Of a stretch of 60,457 bases of DNA, positions 51,017-60,387 are shown piece by piece. The stretch is from Candidatus Nanoarchaeia archaeon (GTDB taxonomy: Archaea; Nanobdellota; Nanobdellia; Woesearchaeales; UBA10216), in NCBI GenBank assembly GCA_028279045.1, contig JANQSZ010000027.1, positions 1-60,457 of the forward strand, given 5' to 3'. Both the position numbers and the translations under genes were made by a program. Position 1 is the stretch's first letter, and each line of letters begins with the position of its first letter. The notes beneath the pieces were generated by a model. That model was not told the origin of the DNA and did not search any database. It saw nothing but the letters and a program-made list of their open reading frames with translations.

Positions 51017-51475
51017 ATGCTAAACAAGAAAGATCGAGTGATTATGTCGTGTCTCCGCAACAATGCCCGCGAGACCCTTACCAGAATGAGTAAATTAACC
51101 CACATACCAGTTTCCACCATATACGACCGCCTCCGCGCTCATGAAGAAAGCATCATCCAGAAGCACACAACTCTGATTGACTTCTCCAAGCTCGGCTATA
51201 ACGCCCGCGCAAACGTCTTTCTCAAAGTAGAGCGGTCAAACCGCGACAATCTCGTAAGCCATCTCAAAGCATCAGAACACACAAATTCCTTATTCAAAAT
51301 AAACAACGGCTACGACTTGTTAGTAGAATTCATTTTTCCTGACATCAAAGAACTGGAGGATTATCTTGACGAACTCGATGGACAATTCAACATCAAAGAT
51401 CGTCAAATGTTCTTTGTCATAGAAGATATCAAGCGCGAAGGCTTCCTTGCTGACCTGCAGCTTGCCCTCCTTTAG
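51017..51475 (+). CDS. Lrp/AsnC-family transcriptional regulator
   Basis: 152 aa. The HTH is LNKKDRVIMSCLRNNARETLTRMSKLTHIPVSTIYDRLRAHEE, followed by a RAM-like C-terminal domain. Confidence 0.85.
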   Translation: MLNKKDRVIMSCLRNNARETLTRMSKLTHIPVSTIYDRLRAHEESIIQKHTTLIDFSKLGYNARANVFLKVERSNRDNLVSHLKASEHTNSLFKINNGYDLLVEFIFPDIKELEDYLDELDGQFNIKDRQMFFVIEDIKREGFLADLQLALL

Positions 51476-52941
51476 TAACTTTTCCGCGTTTTCCGCGCAA
51501 AGATCAGTATTACTACGACAACAAGCAACACAAACGCCCCGAAAAAGAGAACTTGGTTTCCTTTTTCTCCGACTATTTTGCTTGCAGCTTCCGCAATAAA
51601 AGAATCCTCTTTCTCAGCTGCAGGTTTTTCTTCTTCTTGTTGCACAGGTTCTTCCTCTACAAACTCCCCCACAACTAAGAAGTTTACCTGAGTTTCTATT
51701 TCCCTTGTTTCCCCATACACTGTTTCATACCACAGCGTAACATCGACCGTATGATTTCCTTCTGGCAAATTCTGCGGGACACGTACTTCTGCATGACTGT
51801 TAAACGGTACAGATCCAAACGTCCCCTCTCCAGTGATAATGTCATCAACCTTGATCGTTCCCCATTGTACTGGAATTCTCTCCGGATTTACAACAAGCAA
51901 TCGCACTTCTTGTCCAGGCCCGTACGCAGACTGCACACTTCGCACATACGGCGTATTTCCATCTACTGTCACATTCAAGTCACCTTCGATCATAAACTGC
52001 TTACCCGATTCCAGTACATGCAGTTCCCAATCAAACGATAACTCTCCGAGCGCGCGCGGCTGGATAATAAAGGTCATGTTCTGCGTATCATCTTTCTTGA
52101 ACGATCGAGAAAACGTTGCTTTCTGCGGATTCTGTATGTTCGCTGTCTCCGCCTCGACAAATTCCAATCCATCAGGCAGCAAAACAACAAACTCATCCAT
52201 GTTTGTATCTTCTATTGCTTCCAAATCAAACACAAGTCGAATCTGGTCTGTAATTTCTACTGATTCGTTGTGTTCTGTTTCAATTTCTATTGGAAACGGC
52301 ATAACATTCACTGTCTGCGTTCCTGTTTCTGTCTTGAAACTCTTACCATTGTCATACGTTACCTTTGCCGAAACAACAATATCCTTCCCAGTCTTAGCTC
52401 TCAATATCATTGGACATTGTTGTTTAATTGATTGTTCAATTTCTCCGTGCCAGTACACCGAATCTCCTTTTATCGTACATTCAGAAGAGCTTATGTCCGC
52501 GTTGGTCCACGTCAAATTGATGCTGACATTCTCTGCTTCTTTCGACCCTGTATTCTGAATTACAGGTGTAATCGTCGCCTGTTCATTTATCTCCAAATCA
52601 TCTTTCGAAAGCAAGAACGTTATCTCCATGTCTGCAATCTGTTGTGTTATCTTAACCGTAGCTTTATACATAATCCTATCAGGATGACTAATATTATAAT
52701 GAGAAAACAACACATTCTCCGCACAAACCGTACGGTGTTCTTCAAATTCGCAACTATTATTCTCCAGAATGTAACTGTTGTCTCCCCAATCTATAGAGAC
52801 ATCTTCCCCAACAATACTCACAGTAAGAAAATCATCCCCTGCCTTATACGGCACAAACTCGACTGCTGTTCCTGAGAAAACGCTCTCTTCCAGCGCATAG
52901 GCGCTCGGAAGTAAGAATAAAAAAAGAAGGAGGTACTTCAT
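51472..52941 (-). CDS. Cell-surface protein with a signal peptide, CARDB-like beta-sandwich repeats and a C-terminal TM anchor
   Basis: I trimmed the ORF 51472-53001 to ATG 52941 (ATGA overlap with the dut stop). MKYLLLFLFLLPSAYA signal, IQNTGSKEAENVSINL (CARDB-like), and C-terminus VLFFGAFVLLVVVVILIFARKTRK. Confidence 0.75.
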   Translation of the reverse strand: MKYLLLFLFLLPSAYALEESVFSGTAVEFVPYKAGDDFLTVSIVGEDVSIDWGDNSYILENNSCEFEEHRTVCAENVLFSHYNISHPDRIMYKATVKITQQIADMEITFLLSKDDLEINEQATITPVIQNTGSKEAENVSINLTWTNADISSSECTIKGDSVYWHGEIEQSIKQQCPMILRAKTGKDIVVSAKVTYDNGKSFKTETGTQTVNVMPFPIEIETEHNESVEITDQIRLVFDLEAIEDTNMDEFVVLLPDGLEFVEAETANIQNPQKATFSRSFKKDDTQNMTFIIQPRALGELSFDWELHVLESGKQFMIEGDLNVTVDGNTPYVRSVQSAYGPGQEVRLLVVNPERIPVQWGTIKVDDIITGEGTFGSVPFNSHAEVRVPQNLPEGNHTVDVTLWYETVYGETREIETQVNFLVVGEFVEEEPVQQEEEKPAAEKEDSFIAEAASKIVGEKGNQVLFFGAFVLLVVVVILIFARKTRKSY

Positions 52942-53363
52942 CCGGTGCTCCCAAATCCTCCTCTGCTTTCGCCCATCTGGTCTTTCTCTTCCCATGCGCA
53001 TGTTTCGATCTTGACAAATATTCCTTGTGCAATGCGCTCTCCGCGTTCTACAAGCACATCTCCATCGGTGATGTTGTACACTTGCACACCAATTTCGTCT
53101 TCTTCTCCACTATAATCTTGATCAATAACCCCTATACCGTGCGGCTTTATCAATCCTTTCTTCTTTGGTGTCGAACTACGCAATGCAAGCAGCAGCATAT
53201 AGCCTGGCGGAGTACGAACAATAATATTGCCCGGTACTAACCCAATCTTCCCTGCTGGAATTGTAGTATCTTGTCTGCAGTGGATATCAAATCCTACAGA
53301 GCCCGCTGTTTTGTATTCCGGTAGCGGAATTTCTTTATCAATTCGCTTGATTTCAATGTTCAT
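52938..53363 (-). CDS. dut: dUTP diphosphatase (trimeric dUTPase)
   Basis: 141 aa. AGSVGFDI, RSSTPKKKGL and GVIDQDYSGE motifs. Confidence 0.9.
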   Translation of the reverse strand: MNIEIKRIDKEIPLPEYKTAGSVGFDIHCRQDTTIPAGKIGLVPGNIIVRTPPGYMLLLALRSSTPKKKGLIKPHGIGVIDQDYSGEEDEIGVQVYNITDGDVLVERGERIAQGIFVKIETCAWEEKDQMGESRGGFGSTG

Positions 53364-53610
53364 CGTTCAAAACTCTGTCTACTTGCTTAATACTCTGCGC
53401 CATATGCAGTACATTACCGTCATCGTCTAAGAAAAGCACGGTAGGCACGCTCGTAATTCCATATTGCCCTATTTGTTCCCTGTTTTCCGGTTGGCTCGCA
53501 TCGATAAGTTCTCCTTTGAGTTCTTGTTTCGACATATGGTCTTTAACCGCAGGACAACTTGGACAAGTGGGCGTTGTAAACAGTTTGTATTTCGCTATCA
53601 TCGCTTTCAC
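53353..53610 (-). CDS. Small thioredoxin-fold redoxin (glutaredoxin/NrdH-like, CPSC active site)
   Basis: 85 aa. KLFTTPTCPSCPAVK...ITSVPTVLF. Confidence 0.8.
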   Translation of the reverse strand: MKAMIAKYKLFTTPTCPSCPAVKDHMSKQELKGELIDASQPENREQIGQYGITSVPTVLFLDDDGNVLHMAQSIKQVDRVLNDEH

Positions 53611-54047
53611 CTAACTAGTTTCTTGAGCTCTTGCTCAAACATTTTCACGTCTTCAAATTCGCGGTATACAGAAGTGAATCGTAAGTATGCTACTTTGTCT
53701 ATGCTCTTGAGTCGTTTGACAACCATATCTCCAATTTTCTTGCTGGACACTTCACAAATATCTTTTTTGCGCAGTTCTTGTTCAATACTGTCGGCAATTC
53801 CATCAAGTTGTTCAGTTGACAATCTCTTCTCGCATGCTTTCGATAGCCCCTCAACAATTTTCTCTCTATTGAACGGCTCTGTTGCACCGCCTTTTTTCAT
53901 GACCGTAATCTCTACTTCAAGTCGCTCGTACGTTGTAAAACGTCGTGCACATTTCAAGCATTCTCTGCGCCGGCGTGTAGAATTTACATCAGTTGTCTCT
54001 CGTTTGTCCACAACTTTCGTATCCTTCTTACAATAGGGGCATTTCAT
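53607..54047 (-). CDS. nrdR: NrdR transcriptional repressor (zinc ribbon + ATP-cone)
   Basis: 146 aa. MKCPYCKKDTKVVDKRET...RRRRECLKCARRFTTYERLE is the NrdR signature. It is followed by an ATP-cone (VMKKGGATEPFNREKI...AYLRFTSVYREF). Confidence 0.9.
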   Translation of the reverse strand: MKCPYCKKDTKVVDKRETTDVNSTRRRRECLKCARRFTTYERLEVEITVMKKGGATEPFNREKIVEGLSKACEKRLSTEQLDGIADSIEQELRKKDICEVSSKKIGDMVVKRLKSIDKVAYLRFTSVYREFEDVKMFEQELKKLVR

Positions 54048-54601
54048 TCTTCTTCGTTCAAGTACCGGTAAATTGGTTGTTGCTCCTTTACTTGTTCATT
54101 ATTTGCAAGCCTCGCAAGCAAGTACAGTGCATCTGATAATCTATTCAAGTATTGCAGTAATTCTCCTCGGATTTCAACATTCTTACTGAGCCGCACAACA
54201 TGCCGTTCTGCTCTCCGAGCGATAGTTCGTGCATAATCAAGATACGCACTCTCTTTTGTTCCGCCAGGAACTACAAAGCTCTTCGGCAGTACAATAGTGT
54301 TCATGATGTCATCACTCAATTGTTCAATCTCTGCAACATGCTTTTTCGTGATAATCGGAATGTTCTGATTCTCTTTTGTTCCTTGCGCAAGCTCTGCGCA
54401 AACAGTAAACAGATCATTTTGCAATTTTGAAACAATTTCTTGAACTTTTTTATCGTTCATATGGCTCTTGGCAACGCCAAGAATAGAATTAACTTCGTCA
54501 TAGGTCCCGTACGCCTCGATCCGCAGGTCGTCTTTACCAACAACCTCTCCGCTGATGAACCGAGTGGTACCTTTATCACCGCCTTTTGTATAAATGTGCA
54601 T
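54044..54601 (-). CDS. pduO: ATP:cob(I)alamin adenosyltransferase, PduO type
   Basis: 185 aa. MHIYTKGGDKGTT...DDLRIEAYGTYDEVNS...RTIARRAER. Confidence 0.9.
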   Translation of the reverse strand: MHIYTKGGDKGTTRFISGEVVGKDDLRIEAYGTYDEVNSILGVAKSHMNDKKVQEIVSKLQNDLFTVCAELAQGTKENQNIPIITKKHVAEIEQLSDDIMNTIVLPKSFVVPGGTKESAYLDYARTIARRAERHVVRLSKNVEIRGELLQYLNRLSDALYLLARLANNEQVKEQQPIYRYLNEEE

Positions 54602-56743
54602 TTAGTCGCATGAAGTGTAACCGCAGGATTCGCAGGTTCCACATCCCTCCTTATCGATCAGCTGTGTATCGCACTCTGGACAAAGATCAGGTTGGTGTTC
54701 GTCTCCGATAGTAACCACTTGATCACTCATACTTTGATCTCGATAAATCGTAATTCCTTTACATCCCAATTTGTACGCTTGTAAATAGGCGTTCTCCACG
54801 TCATCAATAGTTGCACTACTTGGGAAGTTAATCGTCTTGGATATTGCACCGTCAACATATTTTTGGAATGCAGCTTGCATCCGCACGTGCGATTCCGGAG
54901 AAATGTCCATTCCCGTTACAAACACGCGTTTGATTGCATCTGGAATGTCTGCAATCCTCTGCACACTCCCTCCTTGTGCAATTCTTCTCATTAAATCAAG
55001 ACTGTAAAACTCTTCTTCTTTTGCAGCACGTTCAAATAACGGATTGCTGTACACCATTTCTGTTCCCATAACCGTCTTGATATACGACAATGCGAAGTTT
55101 GGTTCGCATCCGCTCGATACATCTGCCAATAAACTGATAGTTCCTGTCGGCGATATCGCCGTTACACCAGAATTTCGCATCTGACGGCCTTGCTGTTGGT
55201 GAATAGATCCTTCCCATCGAGGATATGCTCCTCGCTTCTTTGCAAGATCTTGTGAAGCGTTATGTGCAGTTTTCTGAATAAAGCTCATCACTTTCTCTGC
55301 AGTTTCAAACCCAGATTCACTGTCATAGGATATACGCAGCGCATACAACATGTCTGCAAAGCCCATAATTCCCAGTCCGATCTTTCGGGTTGCTTTACAA
55401 ACAGCTTCCATTTCTTCTAGTGGATATGAAGTAGCGTCAACAGCATTGTCCAAGAAGTGAACAGCTCCCTTAACAGCTTCCTCCAACCCTTTCCAGTCAA
55501 TCTTCTGGTCTTCCTTAACAAAAGACTTCAAATTAATTGATCCGAAAGGGCTGCTTTCATACGGAAGCATCGGTTGTTCTCCACAAGGGCTTGTACTTTC
55601 CACGTCTCCCAAGTGTCGTCCGCCGTGGAGATCATTCATTCTGTCAATAAATACTATGCCGGGATCTCCTGTTTTCCACGCGTTCTGCAATAGCACGTTA
55701 AACACATTTCGTGCCTTAAGCCGCTTTACTGATTTTCCAGTCCGTGGATTAATTAAATCGTAATGTTCATCAGCCAGCACTGCTTCCATGAACGCATTTG
55801 TAGCCGCTACTGAAATGTTGAAGTTCTGCAGTGTCTGTTTGTCTTCTTTCAAATGTATGAATGATAAAATATCAGGGTGATCTATGCGTAAAATGCCCAT
55901 ATTTGCTCCGCTTCTCTTTCCGCCTTGCAGTACTGCTTCCGCAGAACTATCAAACACTTTCATGAATGATATTGGTCCGCCTGCAACACCTTGTTTTCGA
56001 TGCACAGTATCTCCTGCAGGACGCAAGCGTGAGAAATTAAACCCTGTTCCGCCACCGCGTTGTTGAATAATCGCAGCATGCTTTATCGCATCATAGATAC
56101 TTTCCATGCTGTCGTAAATCGGCAGCACGTAACAACTGCTGAGCTGCGGCACATCTGTTCCAGCATTCATCAGCGTCGGTGATGTTGGCAAGAATTGCAA
56201 TTCTGTCATCATCGAATAGAACTTATCTGCAGACTGTTGCACTTCTTGGTCGCTTCCACCATATTGTCGATCAACTTCTGCAAGTGATTGTGAAACTCTC
56301 CGCAGCATATCCTCGGGAGTTTCATTAAGTGTTCCATCTGCGCTCTTCCGCAGATAACGTTGTTCTAGAATCTTCAATGCGTTATGTGAAAAATTAAGTT
56401 CTTTGATCTTGGCAGCTTTTTCTTCTCCAAGAATCAAGCTTCTTTTCTCTCTATCTGATGTTCGTTCGTGTCGATACAAAATGTACGCTTTTGCTGTCTT
56501 CGCATGCGCACTCCGTATCAATACTTCTTCCGTTATGTCTTGAATGTCTTCGACATGCGGCATTCCTTCTGTGAATCGTTGGCGTACGACTTCTTCTACT
56601 TTCTGAGCAAGTTCTTTAGAAGTTTTCTTATCCTTTCCACCTACGGATTGTGCAGCTTTGAAAATAGCATCTGCTATTTTTTCCACTTCAAATTCCGCAA
56701 TGCTTCCATCACGTTTCTTTACGTGAAATCGTGTAGGGAGCAT
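54602..56743 (-). CDS. Class II (adenosylcobalamin) ribonucleotide reductase paralogue with substituted active-site Asn and Cys
   Basis: I trimmed the ORF 54602-56767 to ATG 56743, which has a GAGGGG SD 5 nt upstream and lies 11 nt after the upstream stop. N-terminal ATP-cone, LSSCYV, STSPCGEQPMLPYESSPFGSINL, and a C-terminal Cys-rich finger CPEC...CGTCESCG. Confidence 0.85.
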   Translation of the reverse strand: MLPTRFHVKKRDGSIAEFEVEKIADAIFKAAQSVGGKDKKTSKELAQKVEEVVRQRFTEGMPHVEDIQDITEEVLIRSAHAKTAKAYILYRHERTSDREKRSLILGEEKAAKIKELNFSHNALKILEQRYLRKSADGTLNETPEDMLRRVSQSLAEVDRQYGGSDQEVQQSADKFYSMMTELQFLPTSPTLMNAGTDVPQLSSCYVLPIYDSMESIYDAIKHAAIIQQRGGGTGFNFSRLRPAGDTVHRKQGVAGGPISFMKVFDSSAEAVLQGGKRSGANMGILRIDHPDILSFIHLKEDKQTLQNFNISVAATNAFMEAVLADEHYDLINPRTGKSVKRLKARNVFNVLLQNAWKTGDPGIVFIDRMNDLHGGRHLGDVESTSPCGEQPMLPYESSPFGSINLKSFVKEDQKIDWKGLEEAVKGAVHFLDNAVDATSYPLEEMEAVCKATRKIGLGIMGFADMLYALRISYDSESGFETAEKVMSFIQKTAHNASQDLAKKRGAYPRWEGSIHQQQGRQMRNSGVTAISPTGTISLLADVSSGCEPNFALSYIKTVMGTEMVYSNPLFERAAKEEEFYSLDLMRRIAQGGSVQRIADIPDAIKRVFVTGMDISPESHVRMQAAFQKYVDGAISKTINFPSSATIDDVENAYLQAYKLGCKGITIYRDQSMSDQVVTIGDEHQPDLCPECDTQLIDKEGCGTCESCGYTSCD

Positions 56744-56754
56744 GTGTTCCCCTC

Positions 56755-59700
56755 TCATATATCGCACTTACTAAATCCACAATTCTCGTCCATGCACGTA
56801 TGGCAACCATTCTCAAGTTTTAAGGTTTGCTTTCCGCATTCAGGGCAGGCGCTCAGCTGCATTCCTGCAGCTTCAATATCTGCTTCTTGAACAGCTTCCT
56901 TCTCCTGCTTCTGCATGTTCAGCATTCCTGCCTGTTCACTCACCACGCCATTCTTAATAGCGTGATACACCGTTGTCAACGATCCGTCTGGCATGGTCAA
57001 CACACTATCTCCGTGCACTTCCATGGTTTCTCCATTCATTTCAATAGTAAACGTCTTATCTTTCAATTCTTGGAATTGTGTTTTCTTTCCTTCAACGCTC
57101 AGGATTGGGTATCGGGATCCATCTCTATAGATAGTAATTCCTTTCAACCCTTTCTTCCACGCTTCCAAATAAATCTTCGAAATAACTTCTGGTTCAATAT
57201 CTTCTGCCATATTGACTGTAGATGAAATACTGTGGTCTACATACTTTTGACAGACACCTTGAATCTCCACGCGTCTTTCAGGATCAACGTGGTGTGCTGT
57301 TCTGAAAAAGTGCGCAGGCAAAATTTCTCTCAATTCATCTTCGTTTTCACACTTTTCAACAGCGTCTTTCAATCCTTTTTCTTCTATGTACGCATTTACA
57401 GTATTGTGGAACACCTTAAACAATTTGTTTCCAAACGATTCTGATCTCCGCGTATAATACAGTGAGAAAATAGGCTCAACACCACCACTCACACCAACAT
57501 AATATTTGTTTCCGCTCACGTATCCCAAAATAATGTTTGAGATTGTTCCCGTCGGTGCAATCGAAAGAACTGCAATATTTCTCAATCCTTTCTGTTTAAT
57601 TTGTTCTTTTGTTTCATCGCTTAGCGATTCTACAAAGAACGCACCTTCTTTATATTTATCATAATCAAAAATTGGCGAACTCCCTTTTTCCGCTGCCAAA
57701 TCAGCGCTTGCCTGATAACTGCTATCTGCGATTTCTTTCATGACACGCCCGATAACTTCCATCCCTTCATCACTATCATATCCTTTTCCGATCTGGTTCA
57801 ACATGTCTGCGATTCCCATCACACCAAGACCTAATCTTCGAGTTTCACCCGCGGCTACGCGTTGTTTGTCCAACGCATTTAACGTTTCATTCCAAATAAC
57901 AACATTATCCAAGAACCGCGTTAAGATTCGTGCAGACTCATCAAGTCCTTGCCAGTCTACTTGCGCGTTTTCTCCGTATCCATTCTTCACAAACCGCGAC
58001 AAGTTTAACGAACCAAGGTTGCACGCTCCTCCGTCTTCTAGTGGAACTTCTCCGCACGGATTCGTACTTGCAATAGGTCGACCAACATAGTTAGATGGTG
58101 AGTACTTTGTCATCGTACTCCAGAAGATTAATCCAGGTTCTGCAGTTTGGTAGTTTCCCTCGACAAAGTCATTCCATAGTGTTCGTGCTTTCACCATTTG
58201 TCGGATTTCTCCGGTGTTGCTTGTGTTGTAATACAGCATGTAGTCTCCTGCACGCCGTACAGCATATTCTGCATCTCCAGAAACAACATAGTCAGCAAAA
58301 ATATCTCGCTTTGCCTCTTTGTCAAACTCTTCTTCTGCGATAGTTTGCGCATTATGTGATGTTAAGAATGCATTTGCAGCTTGCAATGAATCAAACACGC
58401 CCACTTCTTCATACTTATCAATTGGACGTTCTGGAATTCCGTATGAGTAATGAACGTTGCCTGTTTGCGGCGCACTTAACGTGTTTACTTCAGGATCTTT
58501 CTTGTACACCAAAATCTTATCCGCTCCATGTCTGACTTGCTCTTCAACAGCTTGCATGAATTCATCAGTTACCTTCAAACTAATGTTCGCAAATCGAACT
58601 TGTGTGTTTTCCCGAACTTGTTTCTCAATAATCCGCAACTGATTCTCATTAAATTCTCCAGACCAGCTGCATTGTTCCTTAATCTGGCTTGTAACCCAGT
58701 TAGAATCTTTCTTTGCTTTCATGAACAGCGGACTATCTGGGTGTTTAACATCTACCGTCAACATAAGCGCTCCTCGTCGGCCAGATTGCCCAATTAGCCC
58801 AGTAGTCAACGAGTAGATTTCCATAAACGAAACAGCACCGGTACTATTGTCTGCTGCATTATGCACAATCGATCCTTTTGGTCGCAGTGAGGAGATATCA
58901 ACTCCGATTCCTCCTCCGTAGCTGTATGTTCGCGCACATTCATATGCAGCTTTGTAAATAGATTCAATATCATCATTCGCTATGACTGATACAAAGCAGT
59001 TAGCAAGTGTTTTCAACCGGTACAGATCTCCTGCTCCCGCAATAACCCGTCCGCCTGGCAAGAAGTGCCCTTGAAACAGTTCAGTGTAAAATTTCTCTGC
59101 CCATTCTTTCTGCTTTTCTTCTGTGGTTTCAACCGCAGCCACAAAAGCAGCCAGTCGAGTGAACATTTGTTCAGGCTGCGTCTCAATCAGTTCATTTGTC
59201 AAGTCTTTCAAGAAGTACTTCTTCTTGTAAATGTTCGTTGCAAGTTCATTTCCTTGCAAGTAGTTCCCTTCAGGATGAACAGGGAGTTTTCCAGCTTTCT
59301 GTTGCTCTTTCAGGTAGAACAGCATATTCTTGTACGCTTCAATTCTGTCATACCCCATCAAGCTGGCAAGCTTACTCTTGTGAGCAAACATGTTCATGAG
59401 CGCAGCAGTCTCTTTGTCGTCTTCCCGGGAAGACTTCGCAGCTTGCTCCCGGAGCTCAGCTCGCTTTGCTCTATACAGAATAAAGGATTTGGCAGTCTTA
59501 TCATGCCCATTTTTGATCAGAATTTCTTCCACAAGGTCTTGGATGTCTTCTACAGTTGGAGCAGCATTTGCAAATTTCTCACTGGCTCGCGCTACTACTT
59601 GCCCTGCAAGTTGATCAGCTAATTCGCGGTTTGTACCTCCGCTTGCCATGGCTGCTTTGAAAATTACAGCAGAAATCTTTGCAGTGTCAAAATCTACTTC

Positions 59701-59760
59701 ATCACCGCTTCTCTTCCGTATGCGGGTTACTCTATTTGTCTCTACTTCTGTATATGCCAT
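56755..59760 (-). CDS. nrdJ: Class II (adenosylcobalamin) ribonucleotide reductase, long form with the full catalytic signature
   Basis: 1001 aa. ATP-cone (VTRIRKRSGDEVDFDTAKI), LANCFV, STNPCGEVPLEDGGACNLGSLNL, and a C-terminal finger CPECG...CHTC...C. Confidence 0.9.
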   Translation of the reverse strand: MAYTEVETNRVTRIRKRSGDEVDFDTAKISAVIFKAAMASGGTNRELADQLAGQVVARASEKFANAAPTVEDIQDLVEEILIKNGHDKTAKSFILYRAKRAELREQAAKSSREDDKETAALMNMFAHKSKLASLMGYDRIEAYKNMLFYLKEQQKAGKLPVHPEGNYLQGNELATNIYKKKYFLKDLTNELIETQPEQMFTRLAAFVAAVETTEEKQKEWAEKFYTELFQGHFLPGGRVIAGAGDLYRLKTLANCFVSVIANDDIESIYKAAYECARTYSYGGGIGVDISSLRPKGSIVHNAADNSTGAVSFMEIYSLTTGLIGQSGRRGALMLTVDVKHPDSPLFMKAKKDSNWVTSQIKEQCSWSGEFNENQLRIIEKQVRENTQVRFANISLKVTDEFMQAVEEQVRHGADKILVYKKDPEVNTLSAPQTGNVHYSYGIPERPIDKYEEVGVFDSLQAANAFLTSHNAQTIAEEEFDKEAKRDIFADYVVSGDAEYAVRRAGDYMLYYNTSNTGEIRQMVKARTLWNDFVEGNYQTAEPGLIFWSTMTKYSPSNYVGRPIASTNPCGEVPLEDGGACNLGSLNLSRFVKNGYGENAQVDWQGLDESARILTRFLDNVVIWNETLNALDKQRVAAGETRRLGLGVMGIADMLNQIGKGYDSDEGMEVIGRVMKEIADSSYQASADLAAEKGSSPIFDYDKYKEGAFFVESLSDETKEQIKQKGLRNIAVLSIAPTGTISNIILGYVSGNKYYVGVSGGVEPIFSLYYTRRSESFGNKLFKVFHNTVNAYIEEKGLKDAVEKCENEDELREILPAHFFRTAHHVDPERRVEIQGVCQKYVDHSISSTVNMAEDIEPEVISKIYLEAWKKGLKGITIYRDGSRYPILSVEGKKTQFQELKDKTFTIEMNGETMEVHGDSVLTMPDGSLTTVYHAIKNGVVSEQAGMLNMQKQEKEAVQEADIEAAGMQLSACPECGKQTLKLENGCHTCMDENCGFSKCDI

Positions 59761-59851: not shown

Positions 59852-59867
59852 CTACCATATCTTGTGC
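59852..59867. promoter_or_regulatory. NrdR-box-like palindrome A (CTACCATATCTTGTGC)
   Basis: It matches the bacterial NrdR-box consensus acaCwAnATnTwGtgt in the whole right half and most of the left half. It lies 32 bp centre-to-centre from box B. Confidence 0.55.
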
Positions 59868-59883
59868 CTAGCGATTTAAGCCA

Positions 59884-59899
59884 GCACAACATCTTGTGT
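59884..59899. promoter_or_regulatory. NrdR-box-like palindrome B (GCACAACATCTTGTGT)
   Basis: It matches every conserved position of the consensus acaCwAnATnTwGtgt. It sits about 20-30 nt downstream (minus strand) of the TATA at 59917-59926, over the predicted transcription start of the nrd operon. Confidence 0.65.
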
Positions 59900-59916: not shown

Positions 59917-59926
59917 TATATAAATA
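59917..59926. promoter_or_regulatory. TATA element (TATATAAATA) in the divergent nrdJ / response-regulator intergenic region
   Basis: This is the only strong TATA-like tract between 59761 and 59973, and it could fire in either direction. Confidence 0.4.
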
Positions 59927-60018
59927 TTATGGCACTTTAACATATCAATTTAATCTTCAATGTTCCACAAGCTATGCCAATCACAATGTTTTTAATGCTG
60001 AAAATAGTCACGCCTTCT

Positions 60019-60387
60019 ATGACAAAAAAGCGGGTGCTTATTGTTGAAGATGAAGAGAACATAGCCAAGGCTGAAGGCATTATTTTGGGTACCGACTTTG
60101 ACATCCACTATGCCAAAGATGGCAACGAAGCTATCGACAAAGCCAAGGAGATCACTCCCCACCTTGTAATCCTGGATCTCATGCTTCCAGAGCGAGGCGG
60201 CTATGATGTGTGCTTCCATCTTCGCCAGAACCAACAGTTCAAGGACACCAAGATTATCATGGTGACCGCAAAGAACACTAAGTTGGATGAGGACAAAGGC
60301 ATGTTCATTGGCGCGGACGATTATCTGACCAAGCCATTCGAGCCATCAGAGCTCCGCTATATCGTGCAGCAGAACATGGGTGGCTAG
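60019..60387 (+). CDS. Stand-alone response-regulator receiver domain (CheY-like)
   Basis: MTKKRVLIVEDEE...LVILDLMLP...IIMVTAK...DDYLTKPF. The start is taken at the Met just before the receiver fold, though the ORF-track ATG at 59974 is also possible. Confidence 0.85.
   Translation: MTKKRVLIVEDEENIAKAEGIILGTDFDIHYAKDGNEAIDKAKEITPHLVILDLMLPERGGYDVCFHLRQNQQFKDTKIIMVTAKNTKLDEDKGMFIGADDYLTKPFEPSELRYIVQQNMGG

Follow-up and report, generated by a model that had tools for sequence, protein, structure and literature searches.

A 60,457-nucleotide stretch of contig JANQSZ010000027.1 of a Candidatus Nanoarchaeia archaeon, referred to below as the window, carries on its minus strand two head-to-tail genes for class II ribonucleotide reductase (RNR; NrdJ), a long canonical one and a shorter paralogue in which two residues of the catalytic set are replaced. 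The gene content, including Hef, a Sec61-type SecY and a PAN-like AAA ATPase, is archaeal, and the database labels of the RNR homologues name Woesearchaeota or other DPANN lineages. The features of the pair are listed below; conserved columns here and throughout are the 210 alignment columns at least 90% conserved in 126 canonical short-type NrdJs.

56755..59760, minus strand: long NrdJ, 1001 aa, canonical class II RNR with ATP-cone, N567/C569/E571/C580, top-face C255 and six-Cys C-terminal finger
56744..56754, minus strand: intergenic spacer gaggggaacac, 11 nt, with a GAGGGG Shine-Dalgarno-like element 5 nt ahead of the short-gene ATG
54602..56743, minus strand: short NrdJ paralogue, 713 aa counted from the ATG, reductive site very probably disabled
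56459..56725, minus strand: ATP-cone of the short paralogue, aa 7-95 (PF03477, E 4e-23), 92% of conserved columns kept, as in canonical homologues
56132..56134, minus strand: C204, the retained top-face redox Cys, equivalent to Thermotoga maritima C134, in an SSCY context replacing SACF
55547..55591, minus strand: finger-loop segment S385-P-C387-G-E389 ... S398-P399, with Asn to Ser, bottom-face Cys to Ser and the next Asn to Pro; thiyl Cys and Glu kept
54608..54682, minus strand: six-Cys zinc-finger end of the Cys-rich C-terminal domain, C688...C712, CxxC-x9-CxxCxxC-x4-C, laid out as in the canonical relative P0002

The TGA stop of the long gene is followed by the spacer, read as originally predicted, and then by the ATG of the short gene; because the gap is only 11 nt and holds a Shine-Dalgarno-like element, the two genes are probably co-transcribed and translationally coupled. 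A GTG start for the short gene at 56767 would run into the long gene; the N-termini of homologues favour the ATG. Pfam finds an ATP-cone, Ribonuc_red_lgN and the barrel domain in both proteins, which are ~35% identical, and the name NrdJ-prime is proposed for the short-gene product. Relative to T. maritima NrdJ and to the short copy, the long protein bears insertions of ~40 aa after the ATP-cone, ~30 aa after the residue aligned to short-copy K299, ~100 aa ahead of the finger loop and ~50 aa ahead of the zinc finger; it belongs to a populous Woesearchaeota-type family of ~950-1030 aa that is often intein-interrupted.

The finger loop of the short paralogue

The catalytic set of the long copy comprises N567 (AAT, 58060-58062), C569 (58054-58056), E571 (58048-58050) and C580 (58021-58023), with the upstream C255 in an ANCFV context. 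At the corresponding sites the short copy has S385 (AGC, 55589-55591), C387 (55583-55585), E389 (55577-55579) and S398 (AGC, 55550-55552), the last followed directly by P399-F400 where N-L is expected, and C204 lies upstream in an SSCYV context; its finger loop reads STSPCGEQPMLPYESSPFG. Every codon position that the original prediction gave is exact; it had also read SPF in place of CNL, and had described both Ser replacements as single-nucleotide changes, which holds because AGC differs by a single base from AAC (Asn) and likewise from TGC (Cys). Codon reads, Pfam matches and the six-Cys layout likewise bear out its statement that both copies retain the upstream Cys, the Glu, the ATP-cone and a C-terminal Cys-rich finger.

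Residue equivalence, which the original prediction had left to be checked, was established by a phmmer alignment to T. maritima NrdJ (1xje; E 4e-119) that is ungapped across the finger loop and pairs S385 with N320, C387 with C322, E389 with E324, S398 with C333 and C204 with C134; aligned to this structure, the long copy is canonical, and for the short protein no gapped or shifted alignment brings a different Asn or Cys to the lost positions. An AlphaFold2 model of the short protein built with 65 homologues (predicted local distance difference test 86.8, predicted template modelling (TM) score 0.84) has its best PDB matches in T. maritima NrdJ, 1xje and 3o0o, the latter an adenosylcobalamin (AdoCbl) complex, at target-normalised TM scores of 0.82-0.84. 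By fold and domain content (PF02867, E 7.5e-129, plus PF00317) the protein thus belongs to the class II RNR structural family, whose members combine an all-alpha N domain with a ten-stranded alpha/beta barrel that bears the thiyl Cys on its finger loop. The Asn is present in 100% and the bottom-face Cys in 99% of the 126 canonical homologues; of the residue set of a competent class I/II RNR the short protein has the thiyl Cys and the Glu and lacks the Asn and an intact redox Cys pair. With two of the four defining catalytic residues gone, it does not belong among the competent reductases.

The RNR field treats N437, C439, E441 and C462 as essential, and sequences without them, ~1% of RNRdb representatives, are discarded by curators. 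The Cys pair must form a disulfide radical anion to reduce the 3'-keto intermediate, with the Glu acting as proton donor (PMC10306091). With no Cys equivalent to Escherichia coli C462 or T. maritima C333 such a radical anion cannot arise, and it follows securely that the short protein is unable to complete reduction in the normal way, as the original prediction had argued from the loss of the Asn and bottom-face Cys equivalents.

Changes in the window protein extend beyond the finger loop. The specificity apparatus of dimeric RNRs, formed by loop 1 and loop 2, includes K202, Q203 and R207/R208 in T. maritima. In loop 2 of the short NrdJ K272L and R278S are changed while Q273 and R277 are kept, with 79% of the conserved columns of loop 1 and 78% of those of loop 2 retained, and the dimer helices carry F217Y, H227Q and T268A. 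The ATP-cone is present with its conserved KRDG core, and the six-Cys C-terminal finger is found in both window copies. A further Cys, C449 (55397-55399), occurs in the window protein, in its orthologue P0095 (below) and in the variant P0328, at a position where canonical homologues have Thr, Ser or Ala.

The operon and its counterpart in an independent metagenome

Downstream of the pair four further genes complete a tightly packed operon in which all six, from the long NrdJ to the dUTPase, abut or overlap:

54044..54601, minus strand: PduO-type ATP:cob(I)alamin adenosyltransferase, its start abutting the short-gene stop
53607..54047, minus strand: NrdR repressor, Zn-ribbon plus ATP-cone, with 4-nt overlaps with its neighbours
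53353..53610, minus strand: redoxin, 85 aa, thioredoxin/glutaredoxin fold, CPSC motif
52938..53363, minus strand: dUTPase, final gene of the conserved block

Among the best 120 matches to the short protein, taken from 5.8 billion proteins, the closest relatives are only ~57% identical to it. Setting aside intein-interrupted sequences, a tail-less TNQCGE group and one sequence with Phe for Cys, all of these matches but P0095 have the canonical NPCGE...CNL. Both Asn and Cys are kept in 109 of the 112 close short-type homologues compared (one more has Phe for Cys), and within that set the Ser/Ser/Pro (S/S/P) changes are common to just one other protein, P0095, whose finger loop reads STSPCGEQPLLSYEGSPLG. 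Its gene, at 891-2912 of an independent JGI metagenome contig (L001), lies in the same order as in the window: the C-terminus of a long NrdJ, the S/S/P short gene, a PduO-type adenosyltransferase, NrdR, redoxin and dUTPase, with a 3-nt spacer at the long/short junction. Protein identities between the two loci are 56.5% for the short protein, 66% for the long C-terminus and 61%, 63%, 62% and 77% for the adenosyltransferase, NrdR, redoxin and dUTPase in turn. The check proposed at the outset, whether orthologues share the Asn-to-Ser and Cys-to-Ser changes, is hence answered positively by P0095.

Synonymous divergence is saturated between the two operons, so that positional identities and nonsynonymous divergence (dN) are reported rather than dN/dS. 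The short genes are 70% identical at codon positions 1 and 2 and 37% at position 3, and the dN of the short gene is 0.38, against 0.18-0.33 for its neighbours. Saturated synonymous sites together with conserved first and second positions indicate purifying selection on the short gene, slightly less stringent than on the genes around it. The original prediction had allowed that the substitutions might be assembly errors; this selection and the same operon with the same substitutions on an independent contig exclude that escape. The short gene thus very likely encodes a paralogue that is maintained by selection, has its reductive half-site disabled and cannot complete normal ribonucleotide reduction.

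The Ser replacing the redox Cys is encoded by AGC in the window (55550-55552) and by TCA at codon 391 of the L001 gene (P0095); each is one step from TGY but not from the other, and the Cys may therefore have been lost twice, through parallel Cys-to-Ser changes in the window and P0095 lineages. The Cys-rich tail is intact in the window copy and absent from P0095. A DNA pattern for T-S-P-C-G-E-x-P-x6-S-P-x-G gave 13 matches in genome_contigs and 12 in metagenome_contigs, all of them chance matches in high-GC bacteria and none an RNR, and 0 in viral_contigs; the exact S/S/P form is rare in the scanned contig collections, or the pattern is too strict.

Upstream of the long gene lie three candidate control elements:

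59917..59924, minus strand: TATA-like tttatata, candidate archaeal promoter read from sequence, ~19 nt upstream of the first NrdR box
59884-59898, minus strand: NrdR-box-like site CACAAGATGTTGTGC, a clear palindrome
59852-59866, minus strand: NrdR-box-like site CACAAGATATGGTAG, weakly palindromic

The two NrdR-box-like sites (span 59852..59898) are 32 bp apart and are the sole two matches in the window. At least two matches occurred in 34 of 100 shuffles, so that the match count is not significant on its own and the case for the boxes rests on placement and spacing. NrdR boxes are spaced about three helical turns (PMC9110341), with which 32 bp agrees, and their presence suggests that the operon is controlled by NrdR. 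The repressor is described as rare in archaea (PMC9110341); here it is encoded within an archaeal RNR operon (53607-54047) with NrdR-box-like sites at the promoter of that same operon. A gene for a stand-alone response-regulator receiver domain (59974-60387, plus strand) is divergent from the promoter region, and a 509-aa signal-peptide protein with no assigned function (51472-53001) lies just 3' of the operon, with a counterpart at L001 5558-6241. On L001 a 2-hydroxyacid dehydrogenase gene, absent from the window, is inserted between the dUTPase and the signal-peptide protein.

Degenerate NrdJ variants in other archaea

A profile search of 1.84 billion cluster representatives yielded six further NrdJ-like representatives in which the Asn, the redox Cys or the neighbouring residue is degenerate; they are mutually less than ~50% identical and lie mostly on archaeal contigs. 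With the window short protein and P0095 they make up the eight variants considered below.

P0260: finger loop ATSPCAE...ESCMIG
P0276: finger loop ATNPCAE...ESCPEG
P0287: finger loop TTDTCGE...ESTPLG, top-face Cys lost too
P0301: finger loop TTDPCGD...ESSVIG, Asp for Glu
P0322: finger loop TTDPCGE...ESCPVG
P0328: finger loop STSPCGE...ESAFLG, top-face Cys lost too

All six keep the thiyl Cys and the ATP-cone and have no Cys-rich tail, P0287 and P0328 being without both redox Cys, and each is followed immediately 3' by a cob(I)alamin adenosyltransferase gene. P0260 and P0322 stand directly behind a canonical, tail-bearing short NrdJ, and a JGI contig shows the order NrdR, canonical NrdJ, a 142-aa open reading frame (ORF), variant and CobA. 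The succession of canonical tail-bearing NrdJ, tail-less or degenerate NrdJ and adenosyltransferase is thus found in the window, L001, L030, L034, L036-38 and this JGI contig; three different canonical partner types are involved, and the junctions measure 3-11 nt in three loci. Three other variants, at L031-L033, have no canonical NrdJ or other RNR within 8 kb; these most degenerate NrdJ-like proteins form a two-gene module with CobA. From these loci, tail-less or degenerate NrdJ copies are seen to recur in DPANN-type archaea. Where database names are attached to the degenerate proteins, they are those of ordinary AdoCbl-dependent reductases.

The nearest canonical relative of the window short protein, P0002, sits in an NrdR-NrdJ-CobA module, and the adenosyltransferase linkage is therefore ancestral to the canonical short NrdJs; in a related genome canonical long and short NrdJs lie 4 kb apart. 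A monophyletic origin of the variants was considered and dropped, as a neighbour-joining tree gives at least three groups and places the window protein and P0095 beside canonical P0002; given the long branches and the crude method, independent origins are not claimed. A tail-less group (P0066, P0073, P0093, P0097 and P0114) reads TNQCGEAPLLPYESC[IVAM]LG, keeping Asn/Cys/Glu/Cys without the Cys-rich domain. Within it, the gene for P0114 (L036-L038, 3638-10609) follows, after 4 nt, that of a 1452-aa tail-bearing NrdJ which has an intein but no ATP-cone, and it overlaps a gene for a PduO-type adenosyltransferase, an arrangement that may represent an earlier stage of the two-NrdJ layout.

The share of conserved columns kept by the eight variants differs between regions:

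ATP-cone: 94%, equal to canonical controls
Core barrel: 85-89%
betaJ / adenosyl-pocket region: 88%
Top-Cys region with helix alphaA: 71%
Finger loop: 71%
Loop 2: 68% (variant mean)
Loop 1: 51% (variant mean)

Substitutions found in all eight variants are A203S/N, N399 to Pro, Met, Val or Phe, and T529 to Ala, Ser or Gly; H227Q, N385 to Ser or Asp, and changes at T268 and R278 are found in seven of the eight. In dimeric class I/II RNRs the alphaA and alphaB helices form the dimer interface and the specificity site, and the model puts H227 in helix alphaA, directly behind betaA, and T268 in alphaB, directly ahead of loop 2. By these counts remodelling has affected the reductive residues and the entire specificity/dimer module and has spared the ATP-cone and radical half-site. 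The replacements at the lost positions vary (Ser or Asp for the Asn; Ser, Thr or Ala for the Cys), a pattern more in keeping with lifted constraint than with a newly fixed catalytic motif. No Cys-rich tail remains in seven of the eight variants; in NrdJd enzymes this domain, with six conserved Cys that provide a zinc finger and an electron shuttle, re-reduces the disulfide of the active site (PMC5704485).

Possible roles of the short protein and their precedents

The readings set out here narrow the options that the original prediction had named with reserve: a regulatory or pseudo-catalytic partner, another reductant, or a new function. The one favoured, tentatively, is that the short protein serves the canonical NrdJ as an accessory subunit (alpha-prime) without reducing activity of its own. 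NrdJ-prime would sense ATP/dATP through its fully conserved ATP-cone and would modulate the oligomeric state or activity of its catalytic partner through the remodelled dimer-interface helices; the window copy may also relay electrons in trans via its intact Cys-rich tail. Several observations lead to this reading: the recurrent tandem, probably coupled pairing with three kinds of canonical partner; the full conservation of the ATP-cone alongside remodelled dimer helices; and the heterogeneous replacements together with the loss in seven of eight variants of a tail that is now useless. An NrdJd with a dead active site has, moreover, been shown to use its tail for reducing a partner subunit in trans (PMC5704485). 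Several points weigh against it. The thiyl Cys is kept in all eight variants and the Glu in seven, residues that a subunit without any catalytic role would not obviously need; degeneracy is greatest in loops 1 and 2, on which any part in allosteric specificity would depend; the variants of L031-L033 have no canonical NrdJ nearby; and the long and short proteins are only ~35% identical. The case for a heteromer is one of genetic linkage, through the 11-nt and 3-nt junctions and the recurrent tandem pairs. Electron relay, furthermore, cannot be the conserved function, since P0095 is without the tail, and the adenosyltransferase linkage, being ancestral, favours no hypothesis over another.

Retention of the thiyl Cys and Glu, degenerate loops and solo variants support instead a re-purposed AdoCbl-dependent thiyl-radical enzyme, the main rival, though judged rather unlikely for the short protein. 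On this view the protein would still bind AdoCbl and a nucleotide and form the thiyl radical, and dehydration would be the default outcome on an RNR scaffold that has lost its reducing pair. It could act either as a ribonucleotide 2'-dehydratase, which would stop at water loss and return hydrogen to C2' to give a 2'-deoxy-3'-ketonucleotide, or as a reductase in which a small-molecule reductant such as formate replaces the Cys pair, as in formate-type class III RNRs. RNR mutants of the C225S and C462S type and 2'-halo substrates reportedly give 3'-keto-2'-deoxynucleotides by a net 1,2-hydrogen shift, which counts in its favour, as do the top-face Cys kept in six of the eight variants, the well-conserved betaJ / adenosyl-pocket region and the adenosyltransferase directly after every variant, including the three without an RNR neighbour. 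Degenerate specificity loops would suit a single-substrate enzyme, and A203S/N, H227Q and T529A/S/G, recurring in eight, seven and eight variants despite the absence of a common neighbour-joining grouping, could reflect a common new constraint. On the other hand, the lost residues are replaced by no conserved new motif (Ser or Asp at the Asn; Ser, Thr, Ala or Cys at the Cys position) and by no Met or other radical-stabilising residue, the top-face Cys needed by formate chemistry is itself lost in two variants, and Asn-437 substitutions are regarded in the field as inactivating. The product, a 3'-keto-2'-deoxynucleotide, would be unstable, and no ketoreductase emerged as a conserved partner: the 2-hydroxyacid dehydrogenase encoded near L001 and L033 was tried as a 3'-ketoreductase partner and dropped, as tblastn finds none in the window. 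More doubtful still is the extension of this idea to the degenerate NrdJs as a whole, which would then be an unrecognised RNR-derived family of AdoCbl thiyl-radical enzymes without the Cys pair, comprising diol-dehydratase-like 2'-dehydratases or class II reductases not driven by thiols.

It is improbable that the short protein is still a conventional reductase in which S385 stands in for the Asn and a thiol of C449, of a partner's tail or of the redoxin compensates for the lost Cys. C449 is conserved in the window protein and P0095 and present in P0328, the window copy has an intact tail and the operon encodes a redoxin, but five of the other six variants lack C449, which in the alignment with T. 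maritima falls ~50 residues beyond the lost Cys, outside the finger loop. P0095 has no tail, Asn, Glu and both Cys are treated as strictly required, and the essential function is already covered by the canonical long NrdJ of the same operon. Least credible is a functionless decaying duplicate or a sequencing or assembly artefact: the fastest dN in the operon and the additional degeneracy of loop 2 in the window copy (K272L and R278S) would fit decay, but intact 2.1-kb ORFs persist in two lineages only 56% identical at protein level with saturated synonymous sites, the identical substitutions occur in an independent metagenome, the ATP-cone and core barrel retain nearly as many conserved columns as in canonical proteins, and the model is confident and folded.

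Structurally the closest known system is the NrdJd type, represented by T. maritima NrdJ (1xje/3o0o) and by Stackebrandtia nassauensis NrdJd with its Cys-rich C-terminal domain. The short NrdJ has the same fold (TM 0.82-0.84) and shares with this type the thiyl Cys, Glu, top-face Cys, phosphate-binding PTG loop, betaJ SKTIN strand and six-Cys tail; its ATP-cone is as in its close homologues and its adjoining adenosyltransferase as at P0002. It differs from the type in Asn to Ser, bottom-face Cys to Ser, the next Asn to Pro, K272L, R278S, F217Y, H227Q and T268A.

Having lost catalytic residues yet evolving under purifying selection, the short NrdJ answers to the description of a pseudo-subunit, for which the RNR family offers a precedent in yeast Rnr4 (beta-prime), a non-catalytic paralogue that pairs with Rnr2 and, with its catalytic residues lost, has been kept beside the active copy. 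Rnr4 is a class I small, radical-generating subunit, whereas the short NrdJ is of the class II catalytic type and its heteromer is putative. The beta-herpesvirus R1 homologues UL45 of human cytomegalovirus and M45 of murine cytomegalovirus are catalytically dead large-subunit homologues kept for another role; they are viral and class I-derived, have lost many catalytic residues, the radical Cys included, and act on host signalling, whereas the short NrdJ keeps the radical Cys and ATP-cone and sits in an operon for deoxynucleoside triphosphate synthesis. By analogy, Rnr4 and the dead herpesvirus R1 homologues are the nearest functional precedents, and neither is class II.

The formate-dependent class III RNR NrdD1 performs reduction without a Cys pair, using a single top-face Cys and formate (PMC5704485), and offers a chemical precedent for the formate version of the radical-enzyme alternative. 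It differs in its glycyl radical, Met partner and absence of Glu, none of which applies to the short NrdJ: its class II fold has no glycyl-radical domain, Ser and Pro, not Met, occupy the changed positions, and two variants are without the top-face Cys. Adjacent nrdJ-derived genes that work together are known from Pseudomonas aeruginosa, where NrdJ is split into NrdJa and NrdJb (PMC4520616); these are one enzyme cut in two, a catalytic part and a Cys-rich domain, whereas the window genes are full-length paralogues. A literature search returned no specific description of a class II pseudo-RNR or of conserved degenerate NrdJ paralogues.

The Asn/Cys/Glu/Cys set of RNRs is usually held to be immutable, and the window encodes a class II paralogue without the reductive residues that is nonetheless under selection. 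Should NrdJ-prime prove to be an accessory subunit, it would provide the first alpha/alpha-prime arrangement in a class II RNR and a new, ATP-cone-based route of control; were it catalytic, it would represent a new reaction or reductant for AdoCbl/RNR chemistry, with a bearing on the evolution of ribonucleotide reduction. Either reading affects annotation, as the degenerate copies are now labelled ordinary reductases.

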